Shown one piece after another: positions 39,254 to 40,686 of a DNA stretch of 43,630 nt; the first letter of the stretch is position 1; each line of letters opens with the position of its first letter. The notes under the pieces were generated by a model. It was not told where the DNA came from. It saw only the letters and a program-made list of their open reading frames with translations, and did not search any database. The DNA is from Shigella phage Buco. The stretch lies in the sequence record MK562503; one strand, given 5' to 3'. The translations under genes and the position numbers were made by a program.

Positions 39254-39436
39254 ATGGCAGTAGCTAAAGCAACAGCAGCACAGCGTCAGGAGTTTCTGCG
39301 CCAACTGAACATCCTGGCTAAGGATATGTATCAGGCGCTCACGCAGCCGCAGGACCTCGCCTATCGCGGTCCTGAGATTGATGCAAAGATTGCGGCACTG
39401 GAAGCCGCTACAGCAGCAGTAAAGGCCGCTAGCTAA
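39254..39436 (+). CDS. Hypothetical helical protein (60 aa)
   Basis: aaggag upstream; stop overlaps the spanin start. Confidence 0.45.
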   Translation: MAVAKATAAQRQEFLRQLNILAKDMYQALTQPQDLAYRGPEIDAKIAALEAATAAVKAAS

Positions 39437-39843
39437 TGCGGCGCTGGGTTGCTGGGTTGGTTCTGGCATTAAGCATGGCGCTAACGGGCTGCTCAGCAAC
39501 CTCAGCATTGACTGGACTGGTCGGGTCTAAACCTGACCTCTCTGTTCAGGCAGGGGCTGAGAATACCAAGCAGACCGTGGGCCTGAACAACAAGGTGGAC
39601 ACCAGCACCACCACGAAGACAGACTTCAAGGATTCGACAGTAGGCACAGTGGACACGTCCAGCAAGAAGCAGATGCAAAGCATCAGCACTGGGACGATCA
39701 CCGCGCAGGAACTGCGCGTAATTAATAATGACAGCAACAGTATTATCGCAGCGGGTTTTATAGGAGCACTGATACCTATGGTATTGATTATACTGTTCGT
39801 TCTAATCCGGAAGTTCCGAGGTAAAAGGGAATCGGCAGAATGA
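39436..39843 (+). CDS. Unimolecular spanin (u-spanin, T1 gp11-type)
   Basis: N-terminal lipoprotein signal with lipobox LTGC, plus a C-terminal transmembrane helix (IIAAGFIGALIPMVLIILFVLI) followed by basic residues. Confidence 0.7.
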   Translation: MRRWVAGLVLALSMALTGCSATSALTGLVGSKPDLSVQAGAENTKQTVGLNNKVDTSTTTKTDFKDSTVGTVDTSSKKQMQSISTGTITAQELRVINNDSNSIIAAGFIGALIPMVLIILFVLIRKFRGKRESAE

Positions 39844-40085
39844 GAATACCAACAGGTTTAGGTTCTACTATTTCAAGCGCAGCATACGGGTCCAGCGCCA
39901 GCGCTGGGGTCATGGGTTGGTTAGGGGTGGTTATGCATTGGGACTGGAGCACTATCAGCTTCATCGTTGGGGTCCTGGCTGCACTGTTTACCGCCGGTAT
40001 CAATGCCTGGTATAAGCGTAAGACCTATGCGCTTATTGAGAAACTTGGCAAAGAGGGCAAGGTCTACTATGAGTATAAAGAGTAG
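39840..40085 (+). CDS. Holin / pinholin-like membrane protein
   Basis: 81 aa; two hydrophobic segments and a charged C-terminus; ATGA overlap with the spanin; directly upstream of a SAR endolysin. Confidence 0.6.
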   Translation: MRIPTGLGSTISSAAYGSSASAGVMGWLGVVMHWDWSTISFIVGVLAALFTAGINAWYKRKTYALIEKLGKEGKVYYEYKE

Positions 40086-40686
40086 TATCGCAAACAGCGT
40101 GCGCAGGCGTGTACTGGCTGCCATTATAGGCGGCACAACCCTGGGTGGCGGCATCACTGCGGTGGTCACCCAGAACGAGGGATTTAGTGGAGATGCCTAT
40201 CTAGACAGTGCCGGGGTTCCTACTATCTGCTATGGAGAGACCAAGGGTGTCAAATTGGGCCAGAGCCGCTCTCTGAGCGAGTGTAAGCAGCAACTGATAG
40301 AATCAGTAGGGGCGCACTCAGAAGCGCTTGTAGGGCTTCCTGTGGGGCTTCCTGACGTGGTTGTTCTTGGTAGTATAGACATGGCCTACAACGTGGGTGT
40401 ATACGGATTCCGAAACTCAAAGGTGCACAGACTCCTGACTACCGGGGATTATAAGGCCGCCGGTAAAGCTGTGCTGGAATGGCGCTACATAAGCTCTGTG
40501 CGGCAGCCTAAAGGGCCAGGATGGGTCTACGTACCCGCTAACAAGAAGTGGCGTTATGACTGCTCTCAGCTCGTCTCAGGTAAACCTAACAAGGTGTGCT
40601 GGGGTGTCTGGAAGCGCAGGCAGTGGGAGTCTAAGACCATTGGAAATGAATTCAGGAGCGTACAGGAAGCTGTGCGCGCCCTCTAA
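40069..40686 (+). CDS. SAR endolysin (T4 lysozyme-type muramidase with N-terminal signal-anchor-release domain)
   Basis: N-terminal Gly/Ala-rich weak helix (VLAAIIGGTTLGGGITAVV), then catalytic spacing E, D at +9, T at +15 (NEGFSGDAYLDSAGVPT). Start is an internal ATG of ORF 39967..40686. Confidence 0.8.
   Translation: MSIKSSIANSVRRRVLAAIIGGTTLGGGITAVVTQNEGFSGDAYLDSAGVPTICYGETKGVKLGQSRSLSECKQQLIESVGAHSEALVGLPVGLPDVVVLGSIDMAYNVGVYGFRNSKVHRLLTTGDYKAAGKAVLEWRYISSVRQPKGPGWVYVPANKKWRYDCSQLVSGKPNKVCWGVWKRRQWESKTIGNEFRSVQEAVRAL

Follow-up and report, generated by a model that had tools for sequence, protein, structure and literature searches.

The question raised by this locus is whether three overlapping genes of Shigella phage Buco, which lie between capsid-decoration genes and a tailspike gene, form a lysis cassette, and to which known types their products belong. 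We analyzed the whole stretch of DNA deposited as sequence record MK562503 (43,630 nucleotides, hereafter the window), and conclude that these genes very probably constitute the late-expressed lysis cassette of Buco (Bucovirus, Slopekvirinae). Judging from sequence, it would combine a u-spanin of the T1 type, a holin of the phage 21 S family and a GH24 endolysin of the signal-anchor-release (SAR) type.

Gene layout and context

An earlier note on this DNA had described a three-gene cassette at 39436-40686, spanin first, with overlapping starts and stops. Our check of the open reading frames recovered three genes at exactly these coordinates, all on the + strand and co-directional, each overlapping the next. 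The junctions are as the note had implied: the spanin start shares 1 nt with the stop of the upstream frame, gp48 (TAATG), 4 nt are common to the spanin stop and the holin start (ATGA), and the holin and endolysin genes overlap by 17 nt. With overlaps this tight, the genes may be translationally coupled, and this would set the ratios of the three lysis proteins. The features of the region are as follows.

38869-39436, + strand: capsid decoration proteins gp47 (124 aa) and gp48 (60 aa), outside the cassette (PDB 8ELD)
39436-39843, + strand: u-spanin, 135 aa, an exact match to QBP32949.1 ('Rz-like spanin')
39436-39492, + strand: predicted lipoprotein signal of the spanin, with an MRRW n-region, a hydrophobic core, lipobox LTG-C19 and Ser at +2
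39493-39741, + strand: predicted periplasmic domain of the spanin, residues 20-102, with 33% Ser+Thr and no Cys
39742-39807, + strand: predicted C-terminal transmembrane helix of the spanin, residues 103-124, ahead of the basic tail RKFRGKRESAE
39840-40085, + strand: 81-aa holin, assigned to the phage 21 S family (PF04971, PHROG 20)
39879-39935, + strand: holin segment 1, residues 14-32, AAYGSSASAGVMGWLGVVM, weakly hydrophobic and SAR-like, the putative counterpart of S21 TMD1
39945-40013, + strand: holin segment 2, residues 36-58, strongly hydrophobic, the putative counterpart of the pore-forming S21 TMD2
40069-40686, + strand: SAR-type GH24 endolysin, 205 aa, a 100% match to QBP32951.1 ('endolysin')
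40111-40170, + strand: putative signal-anchor-release domain of the endolysin, residues 15-34, VLAAIIGGTTLGGGITAVVT, following K4 and R12-R14 and free of Cys
40177-40224, + strand: catalytic motif E37-x8-D46-x5-T52, found by regular expression
40498-40599, + strand: clade-specific endolysin insertion, ~31 aa that R21 lacks, in which C165 and C177 are invariant, seen in alignments
40704-42230, + strand: tailspike (beta-helix), PHROG 28781 ('tail spike protein', E=3e-148)

The cassette is thus embedded in the structural operon, with the capsid-decoration genes upstream and the tailspike gene downstream. The protein gp47 matches chain M of PDB 8ELD over its full length (residues 1-124, E=1e-74), and gp48 is identical to chain H at 60 of 60 positions; a 2026 preprint assigns both to the decoration of the Buco capsid surface. 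Since both are the decoration proteins of 8ELD, roles for gp47 and gp48 as lysis regulators or antiholins were ruled out. On the other side, the tailspike gene begins 17 nt past the endolysin stop, and its product also matches Pfam Beta_helix and Tailspike_C, in both cases below threshold. A scan for sigma-70 promoters and terminators gave no convincing candidate within the cassette or flanking it, which fits expression in a long late transcript by a phage RNA polymerase.

A megablast search of the phage collection with the cassette and 25 kb of the window returned no identical sequence and identified Cronobacter phage Peggy as the closest sequenced phage (~75% nucleotide identity). For the comparisons below we employed Peggy, phage SU552A and four metagenomic relatives, whose DNA was reached through endolysin homologues; relatives also carry precomputed PF04971 matches. 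The order spanin, holin, endolysin is kept in every relative examined, and Peggy, SU552A and the four metagenomic relatives also share the 17-nt overlap between holin and endolysin genes.

The spanin

The family matches of the three cassette proteins are far beyond chance. In the case of the spanin, these are PHROG 1804 ('Rz-like spanin', E=7e-45) and T1 gp11, to which it shows 37% identity over residues 14-131 (BLASTP, E=4e-23). Among unimolecular spanins, T1 gp11 is the prototype (Summer et al. 2007; Kongari et al. 2018, PMC6139136); it complements lambda RzRz1 (PMC6139136), and on the basis of the alignment the Buco protein is a full-length homologue of this experimentally proven u-spanin.

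The N-terminus, MRRW-VAGLVLALSMA-LTG-C19, in which Arg2 and Arg3 are the basic residues of the n-region, follows the PROSITE-type lipobox pattern (K/R within the first 7 residues, Cys at positions 15-35), as does that of T1 gp11. G18, C19 and S20 are invariant when aligned with Peggy, SU552A and T1; the +2 residue is Ser20, as in T1 gp11, and the Asp linked to inner-membrane retention is absent. Cys19 of the lipobox is the sole cysteine of the protein, and all 58 of the 58 catalogued u-spanins are without periplasmic cysteine (PMC6139136). Within the periplasmic domain, the block SALTGL..PD..Q.GAENTKQ is conserved and common to T1 gp11. At the C-terminal helix, the lowest 19-residue window (106-124) has a dG of -2.6 kcal/mol and a KD value of 2.9, the dG of the T1 gp11 helix being -3.7. 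Likeness to T1 gp11 is found in the L[ST]GC lipobox, the Ser at +2, the GAENTKQ part of the block, the C-terminal helix and an IRK motif. The one-component spanin with lipobox and C-terminal helix that had been proposed for this gene is borne out by LTGC with Cys19, by the helix at 103-124 and by the T1 gp11 homology.

A lipobox scan of the whole window returned the spanin as the only lipobox frame on the coding strand, which excluded an embedded Rz1-like gene or a second spanin gene on that strand. In NCBIfam, neither the spanin nor the holin matched any family.

The holin and its start site

The holin scores 31.8 bits against Pfam PF04971 (phage 21 holin S; gathering score 26), with residues 12-63 aligned to profile positions 5-59 of 64, and it matches PHROG 20 ('holin', E=1e-15). 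Its two hydrophobic stretches, residues 14-32 and 36-58, are in keeping with the small, two-segment, pinholin-like membrane protein of the earlier note, and with S21 it shares, besides PF04971, a first transmembrane segment that is weak and a second that is strong. Segment 1 lines up with S21 residues 12-29 and is at least as hydrophobic as S21 TMD1 (dG of 5.2 versus 6.4 kcal/mol on the Hessa scale), the Gly/Ala/Ser/Thr fractions being 0.58 and 0.63. For segment 2 and S21 TMD2, the dG values are 0.67 and 1.01 and the corresponding fractions 0.43 and 0.35. W36, I39, T51 and N55 are invariant with S21, and the small residues S40/G44/A48 align with S21 G40/S44/G48, where Pang and colleagues are said to have described, in 2009, a small-xxx-small-xxx-small face of TMD2. 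The C-terminal tail, KRKTYALIEKLGKEGKVYYEYKE, which is predicted to be cytoplasmic, is basic (net +3) and longer than that of S21.

Pinholins are defined by function, through ~2-nm heptameric channels and no release of cytoplasmic endolysin (PMC9636201); for the Buco protein, 'pinholin' is a putative label given by homology. It could instead be a canonical holin of the large-hole class II type, depolarizing the membrane through non-specific large lesions and to an extent that would be enough to free a SAR endolysin. Identity to S21 is indeed only ~24-26%, an S21-type dual start is missing, and the loop between the two segments measures 3 residues, versus 8 in S21. Furthermore, SAR endolysins of P1, Mu and N4 are reported to have non-pinholin partners, and as SAR endolysins also pair with canonical holins or other partners, a SAR domain alone is no proof of a pinholin. 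However, the PF04971 match exceeds its gathering threshold, both segments resemble those of S21 in hydrophobicity and composition, and the small-residue spacing of the pore-forming segment is conserved together with T51 and N55; in addition, in the classification of Kongari et al. (PMC6139136), T1-family u-spanins are partnered by pinholin/SAR systems. We consider a large-hole holin unlikely, and favor a pinholin-like protein of the phage 21 S family.

As to regulation, Met residues occur in the holin only at positions 1, 25 and 32, a pattern distinct from the dual start (Met1/Met4) by which S21 yields both holin and antiholin (S21-68 and S21-71), and no in-frame start is present upstream of 39840. 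We note that the dual-start motif is a regulatory feature of S21, and that membership of the PF04971 family does not need it. The relatives examined all have a single conserved holin start, and position 2 or 3 is basic (MR, MK, MIK or MIH), except for metagenomic relative L007, whose holin begins MIQ. In S21, a basic residue at the N-terminus delays the exit of TMD1 (bioRxiv 10.1101/2021.04.20.440580).

The deposited holin (gp50, QBP32950.1, in both GenBank and RefSeq) is a protein of 57 aa that starts at Met25 (39912) and is missing segment 1. Were this annotation correct, the holin would be a single-helix protein and the 68 nt that follow the spanin stop would be non-coding. Eriksson et al. 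2015 (PMC4411677) ascribed one transmembrane domain to KP34-like holins, and S21 TMD2 by itself forms pores, though transient only (bioRxiv 10.1101/2021.04.20.440580). However, Peggy, SU552A and the metagenomic relatives L006-L009 have Thr, Ala or Gly where Buco has Met25, and in these same genomes the upstream ATG is conserved, with AGGA or AAGG 6-12 nt before it. The frame of codons 2-24 is open, its substitutions with respect to Peggy and L006-L008 peak at third positions, and each of these four carries 6-10 synonymous codon changes. Moreover, 10 of the 11 proteins of the 90% holin cluster are called at 81 aa, the PF04971 match begins at residue 12, upstream of Met25, and the GGGG that precedes Met25 sits just 2 nt from its ATG. 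This comparative evidence favors the 81-aa holin starting at 39840, which was also the start chosen in the earlier note, and suggests that the deposited gene model probably lacks 24 codons at the 5' end; that a protein beginning at Met25 is the correct product seems to us very unlikely. The difference matters for cloning or classifying the Buco holin, as the 57-aa model drops the regulatory first segment.

The endolysin, and a tentative extension

The endolysin matches the families Phage_lysozyme (Pfam PF00959, E=1e-18) and 'endolysin' (PHROG 7, E=4e-34), and in NCBIfam it gave only a GTA-endolysin match, far below threshold. Its ATG at 40069 is preceded by AAGG 7-10 nt upstream. Longer forms from the ATG at 40003 or 40027 were rejected, having no Shine-Dalgarno sequence, and the relatives begin at the MSIKSS/MSLR position. 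The best sequence matches in the PDB are 3HDE (R21) and 4ZPU (RrrD), both SAR endolysins, and these two are also the best fold matches of the AF2 model (pLDDT 80.7), next to 7M5I and P22 lysozyme, all with probability 1.00. The catalytic residues E37, D46 and T52, which fit the E-x8-D/C-x5-T motif of R21-type SAR endolysins and are invariant among 40 homologues, correspond to E35/D44/T50 in R21 and to E27/D36/T42 in T1 gp12.

At the N-terminus, basic residues are followed by a Gly/Ala/Thr-rich stretch at 15-34, and these features, together with R21 and RrrD as top matches, support the SAR N-terminus that had been proposed. The label signal-anchor-release is assigned by homology, and the domain is putative. 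The N-terminal region aligns with that of R21; the stretch has a dG of 1.8 (0.8 in R21) and a Gly/Ala/Ser/Thr fraction of 0.60 (0.65 in R21). Cysteines are found at positions 54, 72, 165 and 177 only, with none in the SAR domain. A SAR domain free of Cys is of the R21 type, as against the disulfide-caging type of P1 Lyz. Likeness to R21 covers the E-x8-D-x5-T triad, the Cys-free, Gly/Ala-rich N-terminus and the fold, and the difference lies in the extra ~31 aa with two invariant cysteines, for which AF2 predicts short beta-strands at 152-155 and 160-163, with a pLDDT of only 54-70.

It is very unlikely that this N-terminus is instead an ordinary cleavable Sec signal peptide, with the enzyme secreted in soluble and active form and its timing independent of depolarization: (-3,-1)-compatible sites do occur in and after the stretch (for example between ITA and VVT, and between VVT and QNE), but the same scan flags permissive sites equally in R21, itself uncleaved, the stretch resembles the R21 SAR domain and aligns with it, AF2 places two confident helices at residues 11-37 (pLDDT ~82-87), the neighboring conserved holin would have no purpose if the periplasmic lysozyme were constitutively active, and, as catalytic Glu37 lies only 3 residues past the stretch, cleavage would leave almost no N-terminal structure.

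In an extension of these observations that we regard as highly doubtful, the holins of this clade might be self-timed without an S21-style antiholin, Met25, specific to the Buco lineage, might add a constitutive pore-former made of TMD2 only, and the Cys-pair insertion of the endolysin could be a periplasm-specific, disulfide-stabilized element. If this were true, the Met1 and Met25 products would represent a new type of dual-start pair, composed of a regulated full-length protein and an unregulated pore-former.

Proposed lysis pathway and relation to known systems

From characterized homologues, whose lysis mechanism has been reviewed (PMC9636201), we infer the lipoylation, topology, hole size and release dependent on the proton-motive force of the Buco proteins. 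The endolysin would be exported by Sec and then remain inactive, with its SAR domain anchoring it in the inner membrane. The spanin would receive its lipid at Cys19 and go to the outer membrane, because its +2 residue is Ser and not Asp, its C-terminal helix being kept in the inner membrane; single molecules would bridge the periplasm, caught in the murein mesh. The holin would build up with both of its segments in the inner membrane and, at a critical concentration, segment 1 would exit the bilayer; oligomers of segment 2 may then form small channels that collapse the proton-motive force. Depolarization would free the SAR domain, which would refold into the enzyme and allow the murein to be degraded. 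Since the SAR domain is without Cys, control is expected to be of the R21 type and not through a disulfide switch as in P1 Lyz. Once the murein mesh is gone, the spanin would fuse or disrupt the outer membrane.

The cassette is nothing new in kind and is already known, because its gene order has been published for this clade and the genes are deposited as spanin, putative holin and endolysin. The order spanin, holin, endolysin was described in 2015 as a hallmark of KP34-like viruses (PMC4411677, section 3.7) and in 2018 for Phimunavirus (PMC6115819), in line with the fit to KP34-type lysis systems that the earlier note had pointed out, and the u-spanin family was catalogued in 2018 (PMC6139136). 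KP34, F19, NTUH-K2044-K1-1 and phiKDA1 belong to the T1 gp11 family, in pinholin/SAR-endolysin cassettes (PMC6139136). KP34-like phages resemble Buco both in the order of u-spanin, then holin, then SAR endolysin and in its placing (large terminase, two small genes, cassette, tailspike); Buco differs in genus (Bucovirus) and in host (Shigella). The spanin, holin and endolysin of SU552A are 70%, 38% and 60% identical to those of Buco, respectively; the SU552A holin has a divergent N-terminus, with a Met1/Met7 pair that is absent from Buco. In the literature searched, no experimental test of the lysis cassette was apparent for Buco or for any KP34-like phage. The KP34-like group (Klebsiella Drulisvirus and relatives) is widespread and in therapeutic use. 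The discovery value of the Buco cassette is small, and the correction of the holin gene model is one practical point.

What the cassette does offer is a clear mosaic, with a spanin of the T1 type next to a holin and an endolysin of the phage 21 type. In T1 the spanin comes last (holin gp13, endolysin gp12, spanin gp11), whereas in Buco it comes first; sequence similarity between T1 gp13 and the Buco holin was not detectable, and the cassette overall is thus not simply T1-like. Phage 21, unlike Buco, has a spanin of two components, Rz/Rz1, and its genes run S-R-Rz/Rz1. Lastly, PMC4411677 and PMC6115819 cite phiKMV (Briers et al. 2011) as an Autographivirales podophage which, like Buco, has a pinholin and a SAR endolysin, whereas its two-component spanin and its order holin-endolysin-Rz-Rz1 (PMC4411677) differ. 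Similarity between the phiKMV and KP34 cassettes is given as ~30% over 22% coverage (PMC4411677).

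Organization of the lysis cassette and its neighbours

The entire window is coded by the + strand, and its minus strand showed no competing ORF with a match to any family. ORF reading located three consecutive genes with overlapping starts and stops and with the spanin first, as the earlier note had claimed, downstream of two small genes:

Genes of the lysis cassette and of its 5' side
38869-39243, + strand, capsid decoration protein gp47, 124 aa (full-length match, PDB 8ELD)
39254-39436, + strand, capsid decoration protein gp48, 60 aa (full-length match, PDB 8ELD, 60/60 identical)
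39436-39843, + strand, spanin, 135 aa
39840-40085, + strand, holin, 81 aa
40069-40686, + strand, endolysin, 205 aa (ATG with AAGG 7-10 nt upstream)

The gp48 stop and the spanin start have one base in common (TAATG), the spanin stop and the holin start share four (ATGA), and the holin gene overlaps the endolysin gene by 17 nt. We consider it highly probable that the cassette, taken as a whole, consists of a u-spanin, a holin and a SAR endolysin.

Buco belongs to Bucovirus (Slopekvirinae, Autographivirales). In every relative examined (Cronobacter phage Peggy, Klebsiella phage SU552A and four metagenomic contigs, L006-L009) the same five-gene string was present, namely a 60-aa gene, spanin (134-137 aa), holin (81-83 aa), endolysin (202-209 aa) and tailspike, and the 17-nt holin/endolysin overlap was likewise found in all of them. 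The same order and components have been published for KP34-like viruses, in which spanin, holin and endolysin follow each other, the spanin is unimolecular, the endolysin carries an N-terminal SAR domain, and the holins were concluded to be pinholins (Eriksson et al. 2015, PMC4411677 section 3.7); that work set this order against the holin-endolysin-Rz-Rz1 order of phiKMV. Phimunavirus has the same arrangement as the KP34-like viruses (Buttimer et al. 2018, PMC6115819). The proposed fit to KP34-type lysis systems thus holds, and the Buco lysis cassette is an ordinary one, previously known as a class and, in the Buco genome itself, as annotated genes.

The two small genes 5' of the spanin were ruled out as lysis genes, since they correspond to gp47 and gp48, described as Buco capsid decoration proteins (2026 preprint). 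Their ORFs follow the large terminase and precede the spanin; entry 23sf has a related pair under the name 'decoration protein gp6/gp5'. The overlap of the gp48 stop with the spanin start places the lysis cassette within the structural operon. We note that the closest relatives, Peggy (L001, 1817-2998) and L006 (507-1688), carry an extra 393-aa gene between their gp47 and gp48 homologues, which is absent from the window; the L006 copy has a GDSL/SGNH lipase-esterase Pfam match.

Spanin and endolysin

The spanin matched PHROG 1804 'Rz-like spanin' (E=7e-45) and aligned over nearly its full length to phage T1 gp11, the prototype u-spanin (37% identity, E=4e-23). In its N-terminus, Arg2 and Arg3 precede a hydrophobic core and a lipobox, LTG-C19, with Ser rather than Asp at the +2 position; the protein fits the PROSITE-type lipoprotein pattern in just the way that gp11 fits it. 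A Ser/Thr-rich periplasmic stretch of 83 residues without cysteine leads to a strongly hydrophobic C-terminal helix (residues 103-124; dG -2.6 kcal/mol versus -3.7 for gp11, Hessa scale), followed by a basic tail. The homology to gp11, the lipoprotein pattern and this helix bear out the single-component spanin proposed in the earlier note. A lipobox scan of all window ORFs identified no second lipobox gene on the coding strand, and thus no separate Rz1-type partner. The deposited 'Rz-like spanin' (QBP32949.1) is identical to the 39436-39843 product, and by tblastn 1093 phage records, most of them from Klebsiella podophages and T1-like siphophages, hold a homologue.

KP34, F19, NTUH-K2044-K1-1 and phiKDA1 have been placed in the T1 gp11 u-spanin family, whose members sit in pinholin/SAR-endolysin cassettes; no u-spanin has a periplasmic Cys, and gp11 is cited there as complementing a lambda RzRz1 defect (Kongari et al. 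2018, PMC6139136). The Buco cassette is a mosaic of a T1-type spanin with a phage 21-type holin and endolysin. No similarity was found between the T1 holin, gp13, and the Buco holin, and phage 21 has a two-component spanin, unlike the one-piece spanin of Buco.

The endolysin, 100% identical to the Buco 'endolysin' entry, matched PF00959 Phage_lysozyme (E=1e-18). Among solved structures, its sequence is closest to two SAR endolysins, full-length R21 of phage 21 (3HDE) and DLP12 RrrD (4ZPU), and the alignment to them starts at residue 10, within the N-terminal domain. These two structures were also the top Foldseek matches in the PDB, ahead of other GH24 lysozymes, for an AlphaFold2 model built from 40 homologues (mean pLDDT 80.7). 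The motif E37-x8-D46-x5-T52, with counterparts in R21 (E35/D44/T50) and T1 gp12 (E27/D36/T42), is invariant across the 40 homologues. Residues 15-34 (VLAAIIGGTTLGGGITAVVT), preceded by K4 and R12-R14, are 60% Gly/Ala/Ser/Thr, versus 65% for the R21 SAR domain, and marginally hydrophobic (dG 1.8 versus 0.8). Together with the R21 and RrrD matches, this weakly hydrophobic segment supports the predicted SAR N-terminus.

Control is by refolding in the R21 type and by disulfide isomerisation in the P1 Lyz type. Because residues 15-34 carry no Cys, the comparison points to control of the R21 type for the Buco endolysin, and not of the P1 Lyz type.

Relative to R21 and T1 gp12, the endolysin has an insertion of ~31 aa (residues 144-177, 40498-40599) between the WRY and GxWxRR motifs. 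C165 and C177 within it, and likewise C54 and C72 elsewhere in the protein, are invariant in the 40 homologues; AlphaFold2 models short beta-strands in the insertion, at low confidence, and it may form a disulfide-stabilised periplasmic hairpin.

Holin start site and hole type

The deposited holin, gp50 (QBP32950.1; UniProt 'Putative holin'), is a 57-aa product starting at Met25 (39912). In Peggy, SU552A and L006-L009 this Met is replaced by Thr, Ala or Gly, and the upstream ATG is kept with its preceding AGGA/AAGG motif. The frame is open throughout codons 1-24 (39840-39911), and in codons 2-24 the third position is the one that differs most from the four closer relatives, Peggy and L006-L008, each of which shows 6-10 synonymous codon changes. 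Moreover, 81 aa is the called length of 10 among the 11 members of the holin's 90% cluster, and the Pfam alignment to S21, the phage 21 pinholin, begins at residue 12. On these sequence grounds, the 81-aa start at 39840, overlapping the spanin stop, is better supported than Met25, so that the public model probably lacks the first hydrophobic segment. The earlier reading of a two-segment holin is thus slightly better than the public annotation, and it is likewise an advance over the one transmembrane domain ascribed to KP34-like holins in 2015 (PMC4411677).

The holin matched Pfam PF04971 (bacteriophage P21 holin S; 31.8 bits, gathering score 26, residues 12-63) and PHROG 20 'holin' (E=1e-15). 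Its segments were compared on one hydrophobicity scale with those of an S21 sequence that matches the antiholin/pinholin gene annotated in Escherichia phage 21 at 100% identity:

Hydrophobic segments of the holin and of S21 (dG, kcal/mol)
Segment 1, residues 14-32: 5.2 (S21 TMD1, 6.4)
Segment 2, residues 36-54: 0.67 (S21 TMD2, 1.01)

Gly/Ala/Ser/Thr contents are similar in the two proteins, W36, I39, T51 and N55 are invariant in the alignment, and S40, G44 and A48 lie opposite S21 G40, S44 and G48. Two membrane segments are therefore predicted as firmly as for the experimentally studied S21. The S21-type dual start is absent, Met occurring only at positions 1, 25 and 32. The holin is likely to make small holes as pinholins do; our confidence stops there since identity to S21 is only about 24-26% and since SAR endolysins are known alongside other partners too.

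A basic residue occupies holin position 2 or 3 in six of seven lineages (MR, MK, MIK, MIH), L007, which begins MIQ, being the one exception; S21 triggers later when its N-terminus carries a basic residue (bioRxiv 10.1101/2021.04.20.440580). A possible dual start, Met1 plus Met7, occurs in SU552A; position 7 is Val in L009, a close relative of that phage, and is not Met in the window or the other relatives either.

Proposed course of lysis and the 3' region

Characterised homologues (review PMC9636201; S21 dissection, bioRxiv 10.1101/2021.04.20.440580) provide the mechanism proposed here; for Buco itself, anatomy and homology are shown. After Sec export, the endolysin would stay anchored to the inner membrane in inactive form, and the spanin would be lipoylated and sorted to the outer membrane, its C-terminal helix remaining in the inner membrane. 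As the holin accumulates, segment 1 would exit the bilayer and segment 2 would build small channels. The resulting depolarisation would let the SAR domain leave the membrane and refold into the enzyme. Murein would then be degraded, and the spanin, thus freed, would disrupt the outer membrane.

The cassette is conserved upstream of a highly variable tailspike gene (40704-42230 in the window), whose product is 479 to 757 aa long and belongs to differing Pfam families in the relatives compared (L001, L002 and L006-L009). This pattern suggests that a host-range module is exchanged at a constant junction.

The first and last 127 bases of the window (1-127 and 43504-43630) are identical, which would fit a short direct repeat at the termini as well as an overlap left by the assembler on a circularised contig; discounting this identity, the unique length would be 43503 bp. 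The approximately 0.9 kb after the tailspike (42231-43166) is G-rich, with reiterated ggctgg/ggtggc-type motifs, carries no + strand ORF > 69 aa and matched nothing tested; its minus strand has only unsupported ORFs of 117 and 110 aa with no Pfam match. It may be a regulatory or terminal region. It is followed by a 109-aa ORF (43167-43496) with a borderline match to the GIY-YIG catalytic domain (PF01541, 23.1 bits versus a gathering score of 22.6) and then by the strongest terminator-like hairpin of the region (43497-43526), with a 13-bp stem and a T-run.
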